Positions 1-15,158 of a stretch of DNA of 15,158 nucleotides are shown one piece after another (the first letter of the stretch is position 1; each line of letters begins with the position of its first letter). Under the pieces are notes generated by a model. The model worked only from the letters and a program-made list of their open reading frames with translations, had not been told where the DNA came from and did not search any database. Source of the stretch: a bacterium (GTDB taxonomy: Bacteria; SAR324; NAC60-12); NCBI GenBank assembly GCA_965233585.1, contig CBDDTI010000223.1:1-15158 (forward strand), read 5' to 3'. Position numbers and translations under genes: made by a program.

Positions 1-1
1 C

Positions 2-2284
2 AAGAACTGGAGCTTCCTGACTGACTGCTGTCACTGCTATCACTACCACTTCCGAAGTGCTGCTGCTGGAACTTGACGATGAGTCACCTTTGCTTTTCTT
101 TCCAGGCAGTTGACTAGAGGCTGCTCCTGTAGGCACGTTTTGCTTTTTGTTTCCAGTGTTTTTTGCTTTTGCTTTTGCCTCTGGTTTTTGCTTGGGACCT
201 TTTGCTGCGGCATCCTGATCCACATCAGTAATCACATCTTCTGGCTTGGAAGCCCTTGGAATGCATTGGGCTTCAACAACAGCAGCGTCGGGCACTGAGG
301 CAGGTTGTAGCGGACAACTCAAATGGTCACGTTGCAAGCTAAACTGCTTGGCTTGATTGCACCAATGCTTCAAAAGAAGCACTTGCTCATCTACCCGGGC
401 TTGTGTAAACGGAGTGATGTTCAAACTTTTTTTGCAGCCTGTAGAATTGTTCCTCGCATGAAAAGGACATGTAGCTTGTACAGCCATCTGCTTACCAATT
501 TTCTTAAAAGTAAAGCGAAACGCGCCCCACGAATAATTGTTCACAACGGGCTGCCCAGGAGATGGGGCAGGACCTGGATTGGATGCAGCCGCCACATCTC
601 CTGGCTGTGCTGTGTTCACTGTTTTCACTGCTTCGGATTGGTTGCTCTCCGCTGGGGCTGCATTTGTGTCCTCGTGGGCAGATGAAGCAGGATGCAAAAC
701 AGCATTCGGAACTGCAGGGTCATCATGATCCGCCTCAGATCGGCCATCAAGCTCAAGCAAACGTAAAATATTTTCTATACTGTCTTGTTGCCCAATATCT
801 TCACTTTGGAAAGAATGGTTCTCATCAGCACAGATAGCCACGGAATCAACTTGGCCGTGCTGCTGCACACCAAATGAATCAACATCAGCCCCAAAGTCCA
901 TGAGAGCCATGGGTGCAGACCGATTCCTTTGCCTGGGAGCAACCTCTATATCAGGAAGCAAATGTAGCGGCCTGTTTTGGGCAACAGGCGGTTGAACTCC
1001 TTGCAGCAAGTCAACATAGACTTGGCGTGAGCGGCCGCAAGGAATCTGTGTGATGCCAAACTGCGCTTTCAAATCATTTGCACACAATAAACATTGCAAC
1101 AACTCAGGGAACACCTCTTGACCTCTGGTGCCCCATGTCTTTTCTTGTCCAACTTCGTAAGTGATACTTTCTTTCTTGGTCAATTGCTTCCATTGAAAAC
1201 CCTGGTCTTCAAGTTGCTGCAATAACTGATGTGTTGTGGGCTCTGTGGTTTCAAAGGATGTAGCAACAATGTTCAATGGATCAAGCTGCCGAACAAGCTT
1301 CAAGTGAGAGAGCAGCAACGTAGTGGCCTCAAAAAAACATTCTGACTTGGATACAAAATTTGCCTCCACCAACTTGTCAAGAATGTGTAGGTCAGCCAGT
1401 GGCAAATCATCAATTGGAATTCTGAACGCTTTGGCTGGATTGCCACTGGAATCCCTGGAAGAGACAAGTCGGGTCAAGACCTCGTCGCATTGCAAGGAAA
1501 AAAGAATTGAATCATGTGGAAGTGACACGGAAGATTCGGCAATGCTGTGTTTGTCCAGCTGGTACATAGATTCAGGGGCCTTAGAAAATGTTCCCCACAA
1601 AAGACACTCTGAAAGCTCCTCAAATGAAAACCATTTGGACAAATCACGTAGTACCGAAACTTGTGACAGCTGTCCAGCTTTTGGACAACATTCCAGCCAT
1701 GTCTGCAATTCCCTCCCTGGCTGCGAAACAGTTTCATACAAGTGCACTGCAACATCTTCTGCTTTCAATCGCGAGCCAATCCCTGCACCAGGAGCAAGAG
1801 CAATGGTCTTCCGGGAAGACGGCCTGGTGTGCACAATTCGGAAAAATATTTGCGTAACAGGATTCCCACCATCTTCAATGGCTGCTTCCCCATGGTTGAA
1901 GTTGAAATCTTGAGCCTCTGCCTGTTGTATGTCTGACAATAAAGGGATCTGCGGAGAACTTGTCTTCACAGCACGCATTGCTGTTGGGAGGTCTTGCAAG
2001 ACATCAGGAACAGAACGGGACGGAACCTGCAAACAAAAAATGCCTTCACCGTTGTTCTCGGACAAAGCAAACATATGCTGCTGCAAGGCAGATAGGCGAA
2101 TGGCTTCATACCCGACACGAACTGTTCCTTTGTTGTTAACTCTGTCAGCAATTGCTTGGCGCATTTTCTTTCTGTTGTTCTGATAGCCATCATCAAATTT
2201 CCTTGCCACTGAAACATCTTGGTATTGGCCAGGAACATCACACCTATACAAAATTCTGTTCATCACTTTGACGATGCTCCACTT
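2..2284 (-). CDS. Segment 4: ~760-codon open frame (C-terminal extension), absent from the ORF track because it has no stop inside the window
   Basis: Manual translation shows no stop from KWSIVKVMNRILYRCD... through ...QLLQQLEDQGFQWKQL..., WGAFRFTFKK...QATCPFHARNNSTGCKKSL...LLKHWCNQA...RDH, to a Lys/Ala-rich and Ser-rich tail at the window edge. Confidence 0.85.
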
Positions 2285-2710
2285 TTCTTGTTTCCATTGG
2301 CAAGAAGATCAGGGTGCCCAGCTAGCCCAAGTCGCGCAGGCAAGGATTTGATGTCCCGAGCTACTTCGTACAAGTCCGCAACTTGCATGAGAGTGCTTGG
2401 GTCGATATCAATGTCCATGGTTAAACGCCACAGCCGGCGGCTCAAGGAAATGACTGGTCCAGCAGAATGTGGAGCAACTTTTCTCTTGAGAATTGAATGT
2501 GATGCTTCCAAATACCGCTCACTGACCTGCACCAATCTGAAACACCCTGCTAAATCCTCCAAAGAAGGCAAATTGCCCAAGGCTTCCCCTTCAATGAACC
2601 GATTGACCTCCACTCGTACAGGGGAACCATGGCTCAGCATTCGCTGGGATAAATGGTGGTGTTGCTTGTGAAGAAACTCAGACTGCCCATCCCAAAATTG
2701 CACTATTTCC
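2283..2710 (-). CDS. Segment 3 of the transposase-like gene (putative catalytic Glu region)
   Basis: Resumes in frame after the insertion: (M)EIVQFWDGQSEF...FRLVQVSERYLEASHSILKRK...GHPDLLANGNKK. This is part of track ORF 2263..2808, whose first ~33 aa come from the inserted element. Confidence 0.8.
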
Positions 2711-2829
2711 ATCACCCTCCCCAGGGGTTTTGTACACCCCCCCTTCCCTTCATACATTTTTTGCAATGTATGAACATAGGGGGGACACCGTCGATTTTTT
2801 GACATCAAGTCACATATAGCATGTGAAAA

Positions 2830-2874
2830 GTATGAAGCCCATGGGGGAACCCTGTTTCCCCATGGGCTTCATAC
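2830..2874. repeat. Near-perfect subterminal palindrome or hairpin
   Basis: GTATGAAGCCCATGGGG (2830-2846) and CCCCATGGGCTTCATAC (2858-2874) are perfect 17-bp arms, extended by a G-T pair and AAC/GTT around a CCT loop. Confidence 0.9.
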
Positions 2875-4097
2875 ATTAACTCAATAATGTATGAAACCTA
2901 GGGGGGAGATGCCCCAGCCATCTGCTATTCATTTTTCTATAATGTATGAAAGTAGGGGGGGAGGGTGTTGTTTTGGAAGTATGGACTGATACCTTAAAAT
3001 GTATGAAACCTAGGGGGACACCGTTGATTTTCTTCAAGCAGAAATCATGGGAACGACTTTTCAAATAACATGCAACGTCATACAACTTCCATCAACTTCC
3101 ATCAGAGTACATTGGATGTATGAATGATTGGTTTGACAGGCTCACCCATCATTGGAATTCATTCTATACGTGTTTGGCTGAGGTACGCACAACACCCAAT
3201 ATGCTCTATTTATGTCCTGGCATACCCGAAATGCCACTTATCTGTAATCAGAAAAAGGGATCGCCAAAAACAACCCGGCAAGATTCACCAGAAAAAACAC
3301 ACAACAAAATCAAAAAACAAAAGCCACAAAAACAATCTTGACAAGTTTTGATTATTTTGTGTTTTCCTAGTTTGTTTTTTTTTTCTGTGTGCTCTGGTTT
3401 TGTATTTTTTAAACCGCTATATTCTTTATGCTGTTCGGCTCAAAAGCCTGGTATACAAAAAGGATCAAAACAAACTCCTTACAGTAATTTTTGGCCCGAG
3501 AGAAAAAGAAGAGTCAAAAATGTATGAAAGGAAGGGGGGACAGGCCCACCCCTCCTTAGAATACATTTTCTGAATTTCTGGGTTCGATATGATTAGACTT
3601 TAGACATGGTTGGACCTATGGTTGGATATGGTTGGATACACACACCATCCAATCAAATCCTTTTGCATGTCCTTGTATACAAACAAATACTATCTTACAT
3701 ATTTTTTGGATCAAAGAAAAAAGAAAGTTCAAAAATGTATGAATGGGGGGGGGACAGGCTCACCCCTCCTTGGAATACATTTCTGGGTTAATTATGATTG
3801 GATGTGGTCCTGCTTAGATTTGGTTGGATACACACAAAATTCTGTTCATTTGCCCTTGTAGTCTGACACCGGCTTCAACAGAGAAAGTTGATTCTAGCAA
3901 AAAATGAAACACATAAAAAACAAAAACACAATCAAAACACAGAATCGCCAAAAACAACCCGACAAGATTCACCAGAAAAAACACAACAAAATCAAAAAAC
4001 AAAAGCCACAAAAACAATCTTGACAAGTTTTTCTTATTTTGTGTTTCCTAGTTTGTTTTTTTTTGTGTGCTCTGGTTTTGTATTGTTTAAACCGCTA

Positions 4098-4317
4098 CGG
4101 TAACTATTTTTAAATATACGGTTTTTTAAATATACGAACAAGCATTTTAGACTACCTCTGGGAAGGTTTTCCTTGGCCCGCCCAGCCATTTAAACATACG
4201 GAATCCAATTCATTTAAACATACTGCAACTACATTCAAATATACGAACTGGTATTTCATACTACCTCCGGGGCCTCGCGGTCTGGCCCGCCCTCCACATA
4301 TTTAAATGTCGTTACCG
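4098..4317. mobile_element. 220-bp MITE-like element, TA TSD (Tc1/mariner/pogo-type signature)
   Basis: Other units read CCGC-TA-TATTC; here CCGC-TA-[CGGTAAC...GTTACCG]-TA-TATTC. The terminal 24 bp are inverted with 19/24 identity and the outer 7 are perfect. Internal TTTAAA(T/C)ATACG repeats are present. Confidence 0.92.
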
Positions 4318-6338
4318 TATATTCTTTATGCTGTTCGGCTCAAAAGCCTGGTATACAAAAAGGATCAAAACAAACTCCTTACAGTAATTTTTGGCTCGAG
4401 AGAAAAAGAAGAGTCAAAAATGTATGAAAGGAAGGGGGACAGGCCCACCCCTCCTTAGAATACATTTTCTGAATTTCTGGGTTCGATATGATTAGACTTT
4501 GGACATGGTTGGACCTATGGTTGGATATGGTTGGATACACACACCATCATACACCATCCAATCAAATCCTTTTGTATGTCCTTGTATACAAACAAATACT
4601 ATCTTACATATTTTTTTGGATCAAAGAAAAAAGAAAGTTCGAAAATGTATGAATGGGGGGGGGACAGGCCCACCCCTCCTTGGAATACATTTCTGGGTTA
4701 ACTATAATTGGATGTGGTCCTGCTTAGATTTGGCTGGATACACACAAAATTCTGTTCATTTGCCCTTGTAGTCTGACACCGGCTTCAACAGAGAAAGTTG
4801 ATTCTAGCAAAAAATGAAACACATAAAAAACAAAAACACAATCAAAACACAGAATCGCCAAAAACAACCCGACAAGATTCACCAGAAAAAACAAAACAAA
4901 ATCAAAAAACAAAAGCCACAAAAACAATCTTGACAAGTTTTGCTTATTTTGTGTTTTCCTAGTGTGTTTTTTTTCTGTGTGCTCTGGTTTTGTATTTTTT
5001 AAACCGCTGTATTCTTTATGCTGTTCGGCTCAAAAGCCTGGTATACAAAAAGGATCAAAACAAACTCCTTACAGTAATTTTTGGCTCGAGAGAAAAAGAA
5101 GAGTCAAACATGTATGAAAGGAAGGGGGGACAGGCCCACCCCTCCCTAGAATACATTTTCTGAATTTCTGGGTTCGATATGATTAGACTTTAGACATGGT
5201 TGGACCTATGGTTGGGTATGGTTGGATACACACAAAATCCAATCAAATCCTTTTGTATGTTCTTGTATACAAACAAATACTATCTTACATTTTTTTTGGA
5301 TCAAAGCAGAAAAAAGTTCGAAAATGTATGAATGGGGGGGGGACAGGCTCACCCCTCCTTGGAATACATTTCTGGGTTATATAATTCTGATTGGATGTGG
5401 TCCTGCTTAGATTTGGTTGGATACACACAAAATTCTGTTCATTTGCCCTTGTAGTCTGACACCGGCTTCAACAGAGAAAGTTGATTCTAGCAAAAAATGA
5501 AACACATAAAAAACAAAAACACAATCAAAACACAGAATCGCCAAAAACAACCCGACAAGATTCACCAGAAAAAACACACCAAAATCAAAAAACAAAAGCC
5601 ACAAAAACAATCTTGACAAGTTTTGATTATTTTGTGTTTTCCTAGTTTGTTTTTTTCTGTGTGCTCTGGTTTTGTATTTTTTAAACCGCTATATTCTTTA
5701 TGCTGTTCGGCTCAAAAGCCTGGTATACAAAAAGGATCAAAACAAATGCGTTACAGTAATTTTTGGCTCGAGAGAAAAAGAAGAGTCAAAAATGTATGAA
5801 AGGAAGGGGGGACAGGCCCACCCCTCCTTAGAATACATTTTCTGAATTTCTGGGTTCGATATGATTAGACTTTAGACATGGTTGGACCTATGGTTGGACA
5901 TGGTTGGATACACACACCATCATACACCATCCAATCAAATCCTTTTGTATGTCCTTGTATACAAACAAATACTATCTTACATATTTTTTGGATCAAAGGA
6001 AATAGAAAGTTCGAAAATGTATGAATGGGGGGGGAACAGGCTCACCCCTCCCTGGAATACATTTCTGGGTTAATTATGATTGGATGTGGTCCTGGTTAGA
6101 TTTGGTTGGATACACACAAAATTCTGTTCATTTGCCCTTGTAGTCTGACACCGGCTTCAACAGAGAAAGTTGATTCTAGCAAAAAATGAAACACGTAAAA
6201 AAAACAAAAACACAATCAAAACACAGAATCGCCAAAAACAACCCGACAAGATTCACCAGAAAAAAACACACAACAAAATCAAAAAACAAAAGCCTCAAAA
6301 ACAATCTTGACAAGTTTTGATTATTTTGTGTTTTCCTA

Positions 6339-7061
6339 ATGTTGGCTGCCTAATAGTAATTGCCCCCCCCTAAATTTATTATTTATGTTTTTTTATTTTA
6401 GGGGGAGGGGGGGTCAACCTTCCTATAATAATTTTTGGGAATCTATAGCTGGGATCATGATATGTATCTGATAGATTCTCCATGGTTTTGTTGGGTTTCT
6501 GAAAGATTCTGAATGGATTTGGTGGAGGCGAAGGAGGAGGGCGAGGAAGAGGAGAAGAAGGAGGAGGACAACAAAATTGGAGTTGCGGAAAAAAAATTCC
6601 ACTATTGCCATGCCTGGTGCAGGTTTGTTATTGCTATTCTGGGGCTTGCAAAGGGGGTACCCTTTGTGGACCTGTTTTTTTGTTTTTTTTAATAAGGGTT
6701 TTATAAGGAAATCAGCTGTTTGGTAATTGGATCAGATTTCTGGAATCTAAGCTTTTGCTAATCAAAAGTGAAGGCTGCTTTGAAAAGGATTTGCTTTACT
6801 TGACTCTTTTGGCAATACTAAAAGTAAATAGAGCTAATTGACTTTTAGTATTGGAGAACAAATTGGAGTTGGGAAACAAGTTTCCACTATTGCCATGTTG
6901 GGTCCACTATTGGCCATGCCCTCTGGGCAAGGTCTGAACAAGACTCTTTTGGCAATACTAAAAGTAAATAGAGCTAATTGACTTTTAGTATTGGAGAAAA
7001 ATTGGAGTTGCGGAAAAATGTTTCTACTATTGACAAGATATCGCTATTGGTCAGACAACAT
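6339..7061. mobile_element. 723-bp non-autonomous TIR element, TA TSD
   Basis: Other units read TTCC-TA-GTTTG; here TTCC-TA-[ATGTTGGCTGCCTAATAG...CTATTGGTCAGACAACAT]-TA-GTTTG. 18-bp TIR with 15/18 identity. Internal direct repeat of about 70 bp at 6802 and 6942. Confidence 0.92.
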
Positions 7062-9718
7062 TAGTTTGTTTTTTTCTGTGTGCTCTGGTTTTGTATTTTT
7101 TAAACCGCTATATTCTTTATGCTGTTCGGCTCAAAAGCCTGGTATACAAAAAGGATCAAAACAAATGCCTTACAGTAATTTTTGCCTCGAGAGAAAAAGA
7201 AGAGTCAAAAATGTATGAAAGGAAGGGGGGACAGGCCCACCCCTCCTTAGAATACATTTTCTGAATTTCTGGGTTCGATATGATTAGACTTTAGACATGG
7301 TTGGACCTATGGTTGGATATGGTTGGATACACACACCATCCAATCAAATCCTTTTGTATGTTCTTGTATACAAACAAATACTATCTTACATATTTTTTTG
7401 GATCAAAGGAAAAAGAAAGTTCGAAAATGTATGAATGGGGGGGGACAGGCTCACCCCTCCCTGGAATACATTTCTGGGTTAATTATGATTGGATGTGGTC
7501 CTGGTTAGATTTGGTTGGATACACACAAAATTCTGTTCATTTGCCCTTGTAGTCTGACACCGGCTTCAACAGAGAAAGTTGATTCTAGCAAAAAATGAAA
7601 CACGTAAAAAAACAAAAACACAATCAAAACACAGAATCGCCAAAAACAACCCGACAAGATTCACCAGAAAAAACACACCAAAATCAAAAAACAAAAGCCA
7701 CAAAAACAATCTTGACAAGTTTTGATTATTTTGTGTTTTCCTAGTGTGTTTTTTTCTGTGTGCTCTGGTTGTGTATTTTTTAAACCGCTATATTCTTTAT
7801 GCTGTTCGGCTCAAAAGCCTGGTATACAAAAAGGATCAAAACAAATGCCTTACAGTAATTTTTGCCTCGAGAGAAAAAGAAGAGTCAAAAATGTATGAAA
7901 GGAAGGGGGGACAGGCCCACCCCTCCTTAGAATACATTTTCTGAATTTCTGGGTTCGATATGATTAGACTTTAGACATGGTTGGACCTATGGTTGGATAT
8001 CGTTGGATACACACACACACACCATCCAATCAAAGCCTTTTGTATGTCCCTGTATACAAACAAATACTATCTTACATATTTTTTTGGATCAAAGGAAAAA
8101 GAAAGTTCGAAAATGTATGAATGGGGGGGGGACAGGCTCACCCCTCCTTGGAATACATTTCTGGGTTAGTCATGATTGGATGTGGTCCTGGTTAGATTTG
8201 GTTGGATACACACAAAATTCTGTTCATTTGCCCTTGTAGTCTGACACCGGCTTCAACAGAGAAAGTTGATTCTAGCAAAAAATGAAACACATAAAAAACA
8301 AAAACACAATCAAAACACAGAATCGCCAAAAACAACCCGACAAGATTCACCAGAAAAAAACACACCAAAATCAAAAAACAAAAGCCACAAAAACAATCTT
8401 GACAAGTTTTGATTATTTTGTGTTTTCCTAGTTTGTTTTTTTTCTGTGTGCTCTGGTTGTGTATTTTTTAAACCGCTATATTCTTTATGCTGTGCAGGAA
8501 TCTCGGCTCAAAAGCCTGGTATACAAAAAGGATCAAAACAAATTCGTTACAGTAATTTTTGGCTCGAGAGAAAAAGAAGAGTCAAAAATGTATGAAAGGA
8601 AGGGGGGACAGGCCCACGCCTCCTTAGAATACATTTTCTGAATTTCTGGGTTCGATATGATTAGACTTTAGACATGGTTGGACCTATGGTTGGATATGGT
8701 TGGATACACACACACACACACCATCCAATCAAAGCCTTTTGTATGTCCTTGTATACAAACAAATACTATCTTACATATTTTTTTGGATCAAAGGAAAAAG
8801 AAAGTTCGAAAATGTATGAATGGGGGGGACAGGCTCACCCCTCCTTGGAATACATTTCTGGGTTAATCATGATTGGATGTGGTCCTGCGTAGATTTGGTT
8901 GGATACACACAAAATTCTGTTCATTTGCCCTTGCATTATTACACCAGCTTCAACAGAGAAAGTTGATTCTAGCAAAAAATGAAGAACATTAAAAAAAACG
9001 CAATCAAAACACAGAATCGCCAAAAACAACCCGACAAGATTCACCAGAAAAACAACAACAAAAAACACAAAAACGGCAAAAAACATCAATCAAAACCTGG
9101 AGTTTGACAAGTTTTGATTATTTTGTGTTTTCCTAGTTTGTTTTTTCTGTGTGCTCTGGTTTTGTATGTCTTAAACCCTGTATTCTTTATGCTGTTCGGC
9201 TCTTTCGGCTCAACAAGCGAGGGGTGTGGCCAAAAAAGGCTTTGGGAAGAACGGCGACCGGCAAATTAAACATGTTTTTTTTTCAGTTCAGCAACTTGGG
9301 TGTCTAGAAAACATGAAAAGTATAAAACTAAGGGGGCAGTGAATTCGAGCTGACCTATGAATATCCAAAAATAGACACACGCACGTAAAATGTATAAACC
9401 TGGGGGTTCATGGAACACTGAGGAATCCTGGGGATGCCCACGGAATGGTTGGCCAACACGTACGTAAAAAGTATAAAGGCTCAGGGGTTTAAAACCCCTA
9501 GGAACCCCAGGAATTCCAAAACCTGTGCAAAATGTATCAAACTGGGGGGGTGGTTCGAACTGCCTTTGTCAACCCCATCCATCTTCCACCCCCCCCCCGC
9601 GAACGCTACGTGGTGTATAAAATTTTTCCCTGGGGAACCCTAGGAAGAAACACGTAAAAAGTACATTTTTGGCAGCGTACACCCCCCCTCTCTTGTACTT
9701 TTTAAGGGGGTGGGTGAT

Positions 9719-10508
9719 CTATTTCCATCATTTTTCGCCTCGCGCAACTCACATCAGCCAAACCCAAAACTGCAAGTTTGTATGGAAGACGTTGTGTATA
9801 CTCCAACTTAATGGACATTTCCAACTCGATTGAAAGCTTTCCCTGTTCAAAATCTGAAACAAGTACACACCATTGGTCTGGCGATAGGGACTTGCGGTGG
9901 CTGATGAGCAAATGCATGTGGGCATTCTGATGGTTGGCCTCCAACACCTTTTGCATTCCATAGGCTACCAACTCCGGAAACTGTTTGCCCCGCATTGGGC
10001 AAGTAAAAGAATCATTGTCACCAACTTTGCAACCAAATAGTTTTGAAATGCTTGTGTACCTCTTCCGCTTGCGGGAAGACACTGCATGCCCGGGCCCAAC
10101 AGCTTCTACTGTTTGGATCAAATCTGCATGGCAAGGACAAGACTCGCACCAGCTGCCCAAGTGTTCGACTGTGGTAGCAAGCCCGAGAACCATGTCAAAG
10201 TATGCCATGAAAAAGGAATCTGCCAACACAGCCGTTACATCGGCAGGCCTAAAGGAAGCAGCATCTTTCTCCTGCACATATGACATAAATGCGCGCTCAT
10301 CCCACAAAGCTTGCAAATATGGAAGGACATCTTTCAGCCGGGCGCAAAATCGACATACTTCGCCCCAGCGGGCCAAGTACAAGCTTCCCAACTTGCGTCG
10401 CAGAAACAAGGCAGCAACTTCAGGAGGTGCATTGGGGCGCACACAGAAATTTATGAACCTGGTCAGGCGGCCTGCCTTCCAGAGGCCTTCAATGCTTTGG
10501 AGCTGGGA
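9719..10508 (-). CDS. Segment 2 of the transposase-like gene (RW motif, Cys/His cluster, helical insertion-domain-like region)
   Basis: The frame is open from SQLQSIEGLWKAGRLTRFINFCV into track ORF 9702..10442. It contains YLARWGEV, WCESCPCH and CPMRGK and is cut at RKMMEI by the inserted element. Confidence 0.8.
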
Positions 10509-12300
10509 TTTTTTTTTTCTCGAAATATCGAAGGTTGGTGGATGATTCCTTCAATGAATTGTTTACCACATGCACTATGCCCGGAACAGAGAATGCATTG
10601 GGCAGCAAACATTCTCCGTCAGCCCCATCCTCTTTCACTGGATCATCAGGAACCTCCGCAATAATTTGCAACTCCCTCTTCATTCCAACTTCAAGTTCAA
10701 CTGCAGCAACATCACTTTCAAGGTTCATATCATCACCATTGTCATCATAGGCACCGACGTCAGAATGCAAATCCACTGTTTGCAGCCAAGGAAGCAACAA
10801 CTCTTGTACTTCATTGATACGGAAACCAGCCACATTGATCTCCGTTCCCATGTCAGAGCAAAATGAAAAAAAACTGCGCCGGTATTCCGACAAATGGAAC
10901 TGCGATGCGCATCTCAACCAGAACCGGTACAGCAGGGCACTGCATTTGTGAGCAACACTGGATGCTTGGTTGCCTAAAGCAGCAGGAGTAAAATCTTCCT
11001 TGCGTAAATGCGTTCGAAGGAAAGCATGGTCGTCTGCGCTTTCCGCACTCTGTTCATAAGTGTCTCCTGCCTTCTTTCTGGTTTCACATTCTTCAATCAT
11101 TCTCAAAACTCTTTGGAACAAGGGCCGCACATTCTCTTCAGAAATGAAATCGCAAGAGGACAAGAGAAAATCAAAACCGCATTGCGGACTCGAATCACTT
11201 CCACCAAAGCGCACAAATCGTCCACTCTCTTGCCTTCGCCAAAGCAACAATGCTGCATCGAGAAGCAACCTGGCAAAATGCCGTTGAGATTTTACAGGGA
11301 CGACATTGGGATGGCGAATCAAATCCTGGCAAATGTTCGACATCAAATTTGGAAAAAGCAACGAGATTGTATCCACAAACATTTTCTTCAAATTCACCGA
11401 CGAAGGCACCAGTTGAGTCAATAGCATAACCTTCACCATGAACAAGGAAGAGTAAACTCGGCCGTTCAGCTTTTGAAAGGCAGGGTCATACAAGCAATCC
11501 AAATCCGGCAAGTTGGATGACACGTTTTGAAGCCAAGTTATGCAATACTCCAATTGCAACCGCTGCTCTTCCAACTCATCATTCTCAAAATTGGCAAGAA
11601 TCAAAGGAGCCCATGTTTTCAAATAATGCAACACTTGATTACACGCTGGCAAATCCAGACTACCAAACTCAGGCCTTGGAGGGCTTGCTCCGACCAGGCC
11701 AACTTGAGTTTGAACATTGTCAGGCAACAAACTTGTGAACTCTGGCCAACGACCCAAACAGACCAAATCTTTCCACAATTTGCGCGTTGCCAAATGAGCT
11801 ACGGTTGCAGGCATGGGCAGCACCATAACATCGGCAGCATCGGTCGAGGCACATTCCCACAGGCTCAAGACATCCCTGACAGACATCAAAACACTTGTTT
11901 CTATATCAGTCAAAACAGTCAAGCTGTTCAGGTCTTGCTCTGCTGTTGGAAAGTATGGCCAAGTGGTTGAAGCTGGCCTTACTGACTGATAGCTGCCACA
12001 TCGCTCTCGATAAACTCCATCCCCACATCGCACAAACGATTGAGTTAAAGCTTCTTTCACAAGCAAAGGCTTTGACAGCGTGAAAACCTTACACAACCTC
12101 AAAAAGTAAGCATCTGTGGGGTAGTGCCAGAATCGGAAAAGTAAAGATTGTTCAGCTGACATCACAGTTGTCACTCCAGTCCATGCGCCAGAATACTCAG
12201 CCAAACAAAGGGCATACAAGGTCCGGGTTTGCAACTCATGCGGGGCAACTGGCAATGGACACCGGACTGTGCGGACTTTCAGCCAATTTGGTTTGGTCAT
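10509..12300 (-). CDS. Segment 1 of the transposase-like gene (N-terminus, first two putative catalytic Asp, xxxH motif)
   Basis: 625-aa ORF in the track (10489..12366) starts at a TTG; the first in-frame ATG is 12300 (MTKPNWLK...). The frame is lost in the T10 homopolymer (YFEKKK, then stop after IPAPKH). Confidence 0.8.
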
Positions 12301-12496
12301 CCGGTGGCGTCGAATCTTCAAAGGGGACAGTCGCTCATGTTTGTAATCATCAGGGAATGCGGCCAAAAAAAAACGACAAACACCATTGCATTTTCAAGCA
12401 CAAATAATGGCCTCATTGGACCCTGTAGACACAAAGCAAGCTGCAGCTTGACTTGAAATGCATCCGATCATGTGTTCTTTTCAAAACTCGGCATTC

Positions 12497-12532
12497 TTGC
12501 AGCCGCAATCTTATAGTATCTTGCGGCTGCAA
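12497..12532. repeat. 12-bp perfect inverted repeat upstream of the transposase-like gene
   Basis: TTGCAGCCGCAA-N12-TTGCGGCTGCAA. It overlaps a 19-bp sequence, CTCGGCATTCTTGCAGCCG (12487-12505), that recurs at 13151-13169. Confidence 0.8.
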
Positions 12533-15158
12533 TGGAAATTTCAAACCACTGAGCTATTCTTGCATGACATTCACAGCGTTGAAGTATTCATAAAGATAAA
12601 AACATACATATGCACGACTATATATATATTATAGTCCGGTATACGCAAACGAGGAAAACGTCGGAAAATTGCAAACGCAACATGCTGACATCACAGCTGG
12701 AAAACAGTGAGCCACCGGAAATAAAAATTGGGGCAAATGAACATCCGATCGCGAAAAACGTTCCCTTCCTTTTCTGTTTTCCTCCAAGTTCCAAGCGGGG
12801 AAGGGTGGTCATCAAAGAGATTGGTGGCGTTTGTCACCTATCTTTTCAACGAAAAAAATCAGCTCAGTTCTTCAAGGAGATTCAGTTCATTTTTTTCAAC
12901 TTCCCACTGCCACCATCCGTCACGTGTGAAATACAACGTTGCGGGATTTCAAACATGACTGATGATTGGATCACAAACAAACTTGGCACATCAAAACGTT
13001 TCATCTTCGAGAAATGAAATTCATTTCAATACGTTGATGAAAACTTTGCAGATTTCGGAAAGTGAAAAACAAACATATATAAAATCCCAGATAACAAAAG
13101 TATATAGATCTATAAACATATAGGTGCACACATATACAGGGCGCTCGGGTCTCGGCATTCTTGCAGCCGGTCCGGTATGTTCATCTGACTTTTCACTGGA
13201 AAGGAAACGCCACGCCTGGACTCGAGACTCGGACTGATTCTATTCTGTTTAGTAAAGTATGTTTCAAATTTCAAATTTGAAATGTCCATTCCAATTTTTT
13301 TGTCCAGTTGTATCATCACAAATGAACGCCCATGCTACACCGCACCGCACCTAAGTCGGGAAAGTTAGTTTGAAAACAAATCACAATGGAGCGCTGCGCA
13401 TTCAGGACTGCAAAATTATGATGTTTTTTTTTTTAGTGTTTTATGTCAAAAGTCAAAGTCTGGCCCACCAAAAGCCCAACACGGGCCCAACATAGACCCA
13501 AAAATGACCCACTCTTTGTCGAGCACGACATAGAACCCAAAATTGCCCACAAAACCCTATCAATAAAGGTTTTTTTTGGAGATTCTTCCACCCAGATAAC
13601 TCCATCCATGGAAATCATGGAAATTGATGGAAATCATGGAACCCCACAGGCCCCACAGTCAAAGTGATTCAGTGAAGCAAAAATTCAGCCAGTCGATGAG
13701 TAACTTTACCTTTTTCAGACAAAAATGTATACGAAACACACAGAAAATCACAAAAGGCTAGGGGATCAACGGGTTTCTTAGCCCATCTTGTCGCCAATGA
13801 ACAAACCCGTGTGCGCACATCAATTCAGAACTGGTTTGGAACAAAAACATGCCCGGAGAGAACCTACTAACTTGGCCATGTTGATCAACGAAGTTAAGGC
13901 CGTCATATAGTTATTCCGTTATTTTGCAATATGTAATTCCAGACTGGCAGGACGTGCTAAAAAGATACTTGATTTTCTCGCTCAAGGCATGGAGCGATTT
14001 CTAGGCAAATAAACTCCGATTAAAATCATGATAGATCATGGAAGACATATTCATGAAACAAAATCCACATGTACCAGCAAAACTGACTGACAAGAGTTTC
14101 GGTGTGTGGCCGAACTCCTGTTTGCATACTGTACCATGGAGTCCGAAGGCATATGATTCCGCGCAAATTTGCGTCAGCACACTCACCTATTTGTTGGAAA
14201 GCATGTTGCATGTTTGACGGACACACAGACCCAGCCCCAAAGAAACAAAAACAATTTAAGGTGTTTTATTTGTCTTTTGCAAAACAGACAATTCTTTTGG
14301 TAGGCAAAAAATATCGCACAGTGGCTACGCAAGGCTTTTTTGGCAAAGCTGAACTTCCGACATTGTGAACATCATTCTGGATTCTGTTGTGATTTTTGTG
14401 AACATGTCTGTAAATAGGCCGTGCTTCTGAAAAATTTTTCCAGCTTAAACACGGATATATAAGAGTTGACCAAACACGAACCTTCTTCGCTGCCACAGCT
14501 TATTATACTTTGAGGGTCGCATGATTCAAAGAAATGGGCCAATGTGAACGAAAGCAGACCTTGCAAATCATGGGATGGGAAACATGAAGCCCAAACAAGG
14601 CACATGTTTTCTCGGGCTGAGAGCTGTGCTTTGCATCTTGGCAACGCTGTGCGAAGCACATTGTTGAAGCGAGGACAAAAACACAACGACGCTGCAAAAA
14701 AAGGCGTGCAAAGTTGTTCAATTTGCGTTTTCACAAGCATACGGAAAAATACACAACTTTTTCACGAAAATACGCAGCAACTTTTTCACTTTTTTTTCAC
14801 TGTTCATTTTTGGTTTTCCACTGTGATTTTTGCCAATAAAAAGGTTCACCCAGGCAAACATCTTAAAATCTTGAACTTTTGCCCCTGGATTCCTGGAATA
14901 TTTCTCTGCAATTTTCAGCCGCGACTTCCTTCTTGGCCGATGGACCCAGACCCCTTGCTGCACTGTAGGTAAAACCAACAAATTGCAGTGATGGGGCAAG
15001 ACAATCTCGACCCAAAATTGGCTTGACAAGATGTGCATTTTGGAAAATTATGTTGTTTAAATCATCCTGGTGTTGCTTATGTGTTTTCCGCTTTAAACTT
15101 GCAGTGTTTGATTCCAATGTGTTTGCAATTCAAGCGTAAAACGCAGAGCTCAATCAAG

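Follow-up and report, generated by a model that had tools for sequence, protein, structure and literature searches.

A probable dead copy of a giant DDE-type transposase gene on coral-holobiont DNA co-binned with a SAR324 genome

The window analyzed here is the whole of contig CBDDTI010000223.1 (C223; 15,158 nt), one of the 747 contigs of the 12.0-Mb GenBank assembly GCA_965233585.1, which is filed under the bacterial lineage SAR324. Its minus strand carries four open reading frame (ORF) pieces that together encode one very large protein, and an insert of 7 kb separates the second piece from the third. According to our analysis, the window probably holds a dead copy of a giant (~1,750–1,900 aa) transposase gene of the DDE (Asp-Asp-Glu) type; it is a member of a large gene family, found in marine eukaryotes and unnamed in Pfam, and it lies on DNA of the coral holobiont that was co-binned with a bacterium.

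The gene, its insert and its lesions

The four ORF pieces occupy positions 12393–10489 (634 aa), 10550–9702 (282 aa), 2868–2263 (201 aa) and 2308–2 (769 aa, open at the contig end) of the minus strand. An earlier note, made from the sequence alone, had joined them into a single intronless frame of at least about 1,760 aa, and comparison with relatives confirms this. In a tblastn search, residues 17–619, 625–883, 882–1016 and 1020–1740 of the relative P0005 (1,750 aa) aligned to pieces 1 to 4 in that order. Another relative, P0164 (69–88% identical, depending on the piece), runs in a single frame over break 1 (..RYFDQFFSQLQS..) and is contiguous both over the insert site (..ARRKMLEIVEFWDGQ.., compared with ..ARRKMMEI / VQFWDGQ.. 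in the window) and over break 2 (..NKKKWGIVKVMN..). Because uninterrupted relatives match all four pieces, and because P0164 reads through both frameshifts of the gene body as well as through the insert site, the sequence comparison confirms the pieces as one intronless gene of ~1,790 residues. Written with an X at each of the three breaks, the product of the window comprises 1,791 residues, and none of its segments contains an internal stop.

The motifs highlighted by the earlier note were recovered at the same places and in the same order on the minus strand: DSSPQ (11182–11196), DMGTE (10840–10854), PGIVHVVNN (10558–10584), ARW (10365–10373) and SERYLEASH (2497–2523). The deletion of 2711–9726 that it had proposed amounts to removing the 7,004-nt insert together with one copy of a 12-nt repeat, but its count of two frameshifts was too low, as the lesions also include an out-of-frame start at a T9 run and a shifted tail. 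The features of the locus, in the direction of the gene, are as follows.

12365–12385, minus strand: candidate start ATG (12383–12385) followed by a T9 run (12365–12373); the ATG is out of frame with the body of the gene, as judged by comparison with the relative P0008.
10519–12393, minus strand: piece 1, with the N-terminal region (~330 aa) and the first half of the predicted catalytic core, including D(SSPQ), D(MGTE), the acidic loop and PGIVH (placed by tblastn, motif positions and AlphaFold2).
10509–10518, minus strand: break 1, an A10 run, over which P0164 is contiguous.
9719–10517, minus strand: piece 2, part of the insertion domain, with RW (10365–10373), CESCPCH (10128–10148) and CPMRGK (9984–10001), in columns that are invariant in 15 long members.
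2715–9718, no strand assigned: insert of 7,004 nt, made of tandem units with unique ends.
2703–2714, with a second copy at 9719–9730, plus strand: 12-nt direct repeat CTATTTCCATCA, an exact match.
2287–2714, minus strand: piece 3, with QHHH (2653–2664) and SERYLEASH (2497–2523), which holds the candidate third catalytic residue (placed by tblastn and conservation).
2283–2286, minus strand: break 2, an A4 run where comparison with P0164 implies A5 (..NKKKW..).
2–2286, minus strand: piece 4, with a conserved middle region, an acidic linker, a C-terminal Cys/His module (359–535; CPFH..GC..HWC) and a Lys-rich and Ser-rich tail that runs off the contig (placed by motifs and conservation).

The 12-mer occurs exactly twice in the window, with 7,004 nt between its copies, a number of matches reached in none of 200 shuffles, and the MEI stretch that it encodes is present once in intact P0164. 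We read the repeat as a target-site duplication (TSD) or a microhomology duplication of the insert. The insert itself consists of about eight tandem units of ~680 nt (3246–9202; 90–97% identical), interrupted by repeats at 4098–4313 and 6339–7063 and flanked by unique ends; its GC content is 0.36–0.39, compared with 0.45–0.49 for the gene, and no terminal inverted repeats (TIRs) were found at its ends. Elsewhere it gave only weak matches (69–78%), on one other contig. The reading of 2715–9718 as an intron was rejected, because no register within the 12-nt repeat yields GT..AG. No contig that skips the insert was found among the joints listed for two RNA-library runs and two other public runs; contigs of public runs stop at 2714 and resume at 9719, and two of them carry 15–18 unaligned letters to the left of 9719. 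The embedded repeats at 4098–4313 and 6339–7063 reached a summed contig depth of ~7,000–20,000 in coral runs, against 17–45 for the gene.

Judged from its reading frame, the window copy is a pseudogene. At its start, the 97% identical relative P0008 begins MLENAMVFVVFFLAAFPDD, which requires T10 where the window has T9 (12365–12373), and a contig of the public run X8 crosses this run without a gap. At break 1, one base fewer in the A10 run (10509–10518) would restore ..EKKKSQLQSIEGLW..; a contig of run X1 is gap-free over 9740–12372, and contigs of runs X8, X15 and X16 show T>A at 10509/10510. The homopolymer at this site is variable, with A10 in the window, ..FDFFPSS.. in relatives that are 89–92% identical and ..FDQFFSQ.. 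in intact P0164. Break 2 may be particular to this assembly, since the contigs of three other runs (X1, X8 and X15) have one letter more than the window somewhere within 763–2714. The Ser-rich tail is frame-shifted relative to P0164. Other lesions are carried by the relatives P0008, P0015, P0017 and P0022 (89–97% identical), and P0030 is also broken; such decay of the window copy and its relatives is typical of mobile-element copies.

The protein family and its predicted catalytic core

A phmmer search of piece 1 against 1.84 billion representative sequences retrieved 583 proteins at E ≤ 1e-3 and 153 at E ≤ 1e-10. A search limited to longer proteins yielded uninterrupted relatives of 1,750, 1,738 and 1,804 aa, and full-length members range from 1,698 to 1,917 aa, which agrees with the earlier estimate of about twice the length of hAT transposases; one of the members, P0159, is a complete ORF in an MMETSP transcriptome. 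Zero matches to any of 24,736 Pfam-A models were obtained by hmmscan for 31 members (15 scanned at E ≤ 1 and 16 at E ≤ 0.1, at the sensitivity of HMMER) and for the four pieces of the window. There were likewise zero matches in NCBIfam, and nothing above chance in the Protein Data Bank (PDB) by sequence or profile. A literature search for the motif string "DSSPQ" returned unrelated papers only, and no description of the family was found among the titles and abstracts listed, a coverage outside which Repbase Reports and subscription journals lie. The suggestion of an unclassified family stands as far as Pfam, NCBIfam and PDB go, with superfamilies known only from Repbase lying outside the comparison.

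Fifteen long members, 21–31% identical to the reference, have in common a set of invariant residues, comprising both Asp, the G..H..N of PGxLHxxxN, RW, C-x-C-H, a further Cys, E..E..H and others. In alignment A2 (136 sequences) the first Asp position holds D in 128 and E in 3 of 131 sequences, the second Asp is found in 122 of 124, His in 95 of 104, and the Trp position holds W in 79 and F in 4 of 84. In the Glu motif, the E of (S/T)ER is kept in 24 of 26 sequences, the second E in 25 of 25 and the H in 24 of 25, and the residues put forward earlier as a D/D/E triad are therefore conserved among homologues. The spacings in the 15 members are 104–162 residues from D to D, 53–144 from D to H, 66–69 from H to W and 234–286 from W to E. 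The D–H interval holds a variable acidic loop, with 18 Asp and Glu among 68 residues in the window copy; this is the acidic insert that had been noticed after the second Asp. A metagenome relative that is only 20% identical to piece 1 (24% to P0005 by tblastn) keeps the same motifs.

Columns with Cys or His in at least 9 of 11 full-length members start only at residue 603 of P0005. One cluster of them (C645, C747, C749, H750, C790, H870, H898 and H899 in P0005 numbering) is in the insertion domain. Six of these residues, C747, C749, H750, C790, H898 and H899, stand in the position of a Kolobok-type zinc finger and are kept in 9–11 of the 11 members, where they may form a metal site. A second cluster (C1601, H1604, C1612, C1637 and H1649) is located near the C-terminus, where the module may be akin to WRKY/GCM1/FLYWCH fingers. 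Along P0005 conservation is highest at 321–1040, moderate in the N-terminal 320 residues and at 1041–1440, and low in the acidic linker, and it peaks at the C-terminal module.

The part of the gene at 10519–11406 (residues 330–625 of piece 1, 296 residues) was modeled with AlphaFold2 from a 106-row alignment. The mean predicted local distance difference test score was 84.1 and the predicted template modeling (TM) score 0.75, with only the acidic loop (230–258) modeled poorly. The model begins with a helical N-terminal part, followed by a strand (64–75) that bears the first Asp (D71), a strand (78–89) and two long helices; then come strands 135–138 and 142–145, helices within 151–177, strand 179–184, strand 272–275 and helix 277–291. 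The second Asp (D185) directly follows strand 179–184, and the conserved H279 lies at the start of helix 277–291. The first half of the core is thus confidently predicted to adopt an RNase H-like fold in which strand 1 bears the first Asp and the second comes directly after strand 4, as in RNase H-fold transposases. A Chou-Fasman prediction averaged over the alignment agrees with the strands before both Asp and is too crude to count.

A Foldseek search of the model against PDB gave no match at E ≤ 0.001. The first rank was taken by RNase H3 (E 0.005), and the best 50 matches also included RNase HII, HIII and H2, endonuclease V, Argonaute, ribosomal proteins and Hsp70 domains; most of these weak matches are to proteins with an RNase H fold. 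The hAT transposase Hermes appeared at ranks 5, 13, 26 and 32 with E-values of 0.067–0.32 and probabilities of 0.63–0.87, all of them weak matches, and its alignments were the longest (195–209 columns) with the highest query TM-scores (0.29–0.33) among the best 50. No other transposase, integrase, RAG1 or Transib chain was present among these 50 matches. Of the structural check proposed earlier, the RNase H-like order with both Asp in place was recovered in the model; the Foldseek matches hint weakly at such a fold and at Hermes as its closest neighbor among the transposases of known structure.

Origin of the contig

The assembly falls into 42 ORF-dense, bacterial-like contigs (3.9 Mb) and 705 contigs of low ORF density (8.1 Mb, GC 0.39). 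Twelve long ORFs from the latter include a Ty3/gypsy pol, a Penelope-like reverse transcriptase with GIY-YIG, two class-C G protein-coupled receptors (GPCRs), a B-box/Filamin/NHL protein and TPR-CHAT proteins, and because of this retrotransposon, GPCR and B-box/Filamin/NHL content we regard the low-ORF contigs as animal DNA. The gene stretch is held by 20 of the 24 public runs among those listed, including runs labeled as coral metagenome, and the gene is absent from all 44 further genomes searched within this bacterial family. Its GC content at third codon positions (0.46) ranks at 0.63 among the 232 other long ORFs of the low-ORF contigs, so the gene is not foreign to them by composition. 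The contig is metazoan DNA of the coral holobiont that ended up in one bin with a bacterial genome; this chimeric bin was nonetheless scored as 92.5% complete and 2.1% contaminated by markers.

Part of the stretch is held by six RNA-library runs. These provide no evidence of transcription, because the depth of the gene equals that of the non-coding flank: in run X15 the summed depth is 20 for the gene and 18 for the non-coding 5′ flank, and the pattern follows that of the DNA runs. The expression reading was rejected.

Several side observations concern the same DNA. Immediately upstream of the gene, contigs of runs X8 and X15 have 20 different letters where the window has the 471 nt of 12488–12958, a presence/absence polymorphism. 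The observed/expected CpG ratio is 0.56 in the gene, 0.81 in its 5′ flank and 0.80 as the median of the 232 other long ORFs; the low value in the gene may be a trace of methylation. Four other long ORFs in the animal DNA (L009, L011, L015 and L020 on contigs C287, C13, C484 and C107; 1,500, 1,286, 1,100 and 849 aa) had no Pfam match at E ≤ 1e-5. Rfam and tRNA scans of the window gave nothing above chance.

Relationship to known transposases and competing readings

The earlier proposal of a hAT-like DDE transposase combined two claims that fared differently. The assignment to DDE/RNase H-type transposases is well supported, whereas the likeness to hAT is weakly so: the literal C/DxxH motif and the BED and hAT dimerization domains are absent, and the Cys/His cluster of the insertion lies where Kolobok transposases have a zinc finger. 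As in the hAT transposases Hermes, Ac and Kat1, the family has a predicted RNase H-like core with one Asp in strand 1 and another after strand 4, a long insertion that precedes the Glu and contains, far upstream of it, both a His and a Trp that are conserved (RW, 234–286 aa before E), and an ER.. motif at the Glu. The distance from W to E in Hermes is 253. Hermes was the sole transposase among the best 50 Foldseek matches, and all named neighbors in the ESM Atlas carry hAT-clan families (scores 0.81–0.87), which we treat as a lead only. Pfam includes a model of Kyakuja-Dileera-Zisupton transposases, and no transposase family among its 24,736 Pfam-A models was matched by the 31 members. A search of the assembly for hAT sequences revealed one degenerate Dimer_Tnp_hAT remnant in contig C660, no match to PF14372 and no hAT-like motif chain in 233 long ORFs.

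The W-to-E distance of Kat1 is 319, and the active site of Hermes involves H268 of its CxxH motif, W182 and W319 (PMC4763223). The C/DxxH motif is common to Kolobok, hAT, P, MuDR and Dada (PMC9587614); in hAT and MULE it stands 15–45 residues after the second Asp, with a Trp upstream of the Glu (PMC5499845). hAT elements are further characterized by a hairpin on the flank, 8-bp TSDs and an N-terminal BED finger (bioRxiv 10.1101/2022.09.16.508221). Short TIRs are another hallmark of hAT elements. The proteins of the present family differ in being 2–3 times longer, in having GxxH instead of C/DxxH at 53–144 aa after the second Asp, and in lacking the Trp two residues after the first Asp (W182 in Hermes; PMC4763223). 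They show no BED finger (Pfam, 31 members; no conserved Cys or His before residue 603) and, at HMMER sensitivity, no Dimer_Tnp_hAT match in the 31 members, and they possess a Cys/His cluster inside the insertion as well as a C-terminal Cys/His module. The hAT order of D, D, H, RW and E noted earlier is indeed conserved (counts of alignment A2), but GIVH is not a literal C/DxxH, having Gly at −3. Because the named ESM Atlas neighbors are hAT-clan and the His and Trp are present, we assign the family to the C/DxxH group, within which the available evidence puts it closest to hAT, and do not file it in hAT or any other named superfamily.

We consider a dead copy of a giant DDE-type transposase gene the probable identity of the locus. 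Intact members would have an RNase H-fold core whose metal ions are bound jointly by the two Asp (one on strand 1, the other following strand 4) and by a helix-borne Glu ~415 residues further on; a long insertion of helices, situated between this Glu and the second Asp, would carry the invariant His, the Arg-Trp pair and the Cys/His cluster. If it acted like hAT transposases and their relatives, such an enzyme would nick the DNA at the element end, close the flanking DNA into a hairpin and attach the 3′ OH ends thus released to the target in a staggered manner; the element ends may be bound by the C-terminal Cys/His module and the N-terminal region. Hairpin-forming chemistry is common to the Transib/RAG1/EnSpm group and hAT (PMC5499845).

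Several observations weigh against this identity. Foldseek never reaches E ≤ 0.001 and the Hermes TM-scores are low (0.29–0.33), and the modeled part is the first half of the core with both Asp, so that the Glu and the insertion domain fall outside the model. No profile or sequence link leads to any transposase family in Pfam, NCBIfam or PDB, and the H motif of the 15 members reads P-G-x-L-H, with Gly at −3 and 53–144 aa beyond the second Asp. The tblastn search of the 12 Mb bin, which had been suggested as a way to find intact copies, revealed one gene copy only, that of C223. The gene is also low-copy in the public runs, because its summed contig depth (17–45) resembles that of the flank (29–34), and in a contig of another sample (X8, 11510–12487) the same 5′ flank is joined to the gene. 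Element ends, TIRs and TSDs were seen for no member: there were no further copies with flanks in viral or genome contigs, metagenome contigs offered two short loci without ends, and the assembly itself contained the C223 copy only. One metagenome contig (L002) has three 51-nt tandem repeats at 7–159, 1.6 kb upstream of the ORF of a distant family member, which could be subterminal repeats or unrelated.

The alternative that survives best, although we consider it unlikely, is that the family corresponds to a superfamily already described in Repbase but not modeled in Pfam, the gene then being a divergent member of it and not a new lineage. Since Repbase lay outside the comparison, absence from Pfam proves nothing here. 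Kolobok, whose elements have a TTAA TSD, would be the likeliest candidate, the others being Dada, Zisupton, Academ and Novosib. The family shows the motif order of the C/DxxH-sharing group, and each of the 11 full-length members has a Cys/His cluster (CxCH..C, then HH) between its H motif and its E, at the site where almost all Kolobok transposases have a zinc finger, which hAT, P and MuDR lack; Kolobok is also known from cnidarians (PMC9587614). However, Kolobok transposases usually have a THAP domain, which is missing from the family (zero Pfam matches in 31 members), and the Xenopus Kolobok proteins measure >600 to 783 aa (PMC6004289), so that the 1,700–1,900 aa of the present family are over twice as long, a comparison made with Kolobok by description only. 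The hAT-clan identity of the named ESM neighbors, together with the presence of Hermes as the sole transposase among the best 50 Foldseek matches, also points away from Kolobok. To our knowledge, there is no solved Kolobok structure.

Somewhat less likely still is a second alternative, in which the family comprises domesticated, transposase-derived host genes of marine eukaryotes that are no longer mobile, and the window holds an ordinary pseudogene. The low copy number in the runs, the single copy in the bin and the 5′ flank shared with the X8 contig (11510–12487) would fit such genes, and so would the complete ORF P0159 in a transcriptome. The whole 1,700-aa architecture is kept among members only 21–31% identical, and the window is 81–88% identical to P0164/P0166 in the core compared with 69% in the C-terminal part. 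Against domestication, the catalytic-type residues are near-invariant over 100+ members, as expected of active enzymes, whereas domesticated Kolobok copies often lose the DDE residues (PMC6004289). Two metagenome copies that are 98.2% identical differ by 35 non-synonymous and 6 synonymous changes and one gap, a divergence that looks neutral, with no sign of purifying selection in the codons compared. These two features, the intronless 5-kb ORFs within animal DNA and the many independently broken copies argue together for mobility.

The weakest alternative would place the core with EnSpm, Mirage, Chapaev, Transib and RAG1 instead of the hAT-like group, as might be suggested by the large size of the proteins, by a D–D spacing of ~115, nearer to the value of RAG1 than to that of Hermes, and by a Cys pair and following His pair between the second Asp and the Glu, in the order of the C(2)C and H(3-4)H shared by EnSpm, Transib and RAG1 (PMC12730594). 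This is very improbable, because the spacings are in fact C(1)C (C-x-C-H) and an adjacent HH, no RAG1 or Transib chain occurs among the best 50 Foldseek matches, no Pfam RAG1 or EnSpm model is matched, and the ESM neighbors are hAT-clan.

Returning to the transposase gene itself, a bolder proposal is possible, and we advance it tentatively: the family may constitute an unnamed eukaryotic cut-and-paste lineage at the superfamily level within the hAT/P/MuDR/Kolobok/Dada group. It would be distinguished by a length of 1,700–1,900 aa, the GxxH variant, the zinc cluster in the insertion, a fixed His-Trp spacer of 66–69 residues and a C-terminal Cys/His DNA-binding module that replaces BED or THAP, and it would be widespread in marine protists and cnidarians and go unnoticed by present domain libraries.

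The case of this bin, with ~8 Mb of animal DNA despite scores of 92.5% completeness and 2.1% contamination, serves as a warning. Sequence searches of Pfam, NCBIfam and PDB fail to reveal hundreds of clusters of a 5-kb intronless gene, which in the annotation of corals, of dinoflagellate-like protists and of marine metagenomes therefore remain large "hypothetical proteins"; members of the family may escape repeat masking as well. If the family is a separate lineage, it would add a new branch to a group that has yielded several domesticated recombinases and would provide a naturally occurring version of the hairpin-forming active site in which Gly replaces Cys/Asp and a zinc cluster is built in.

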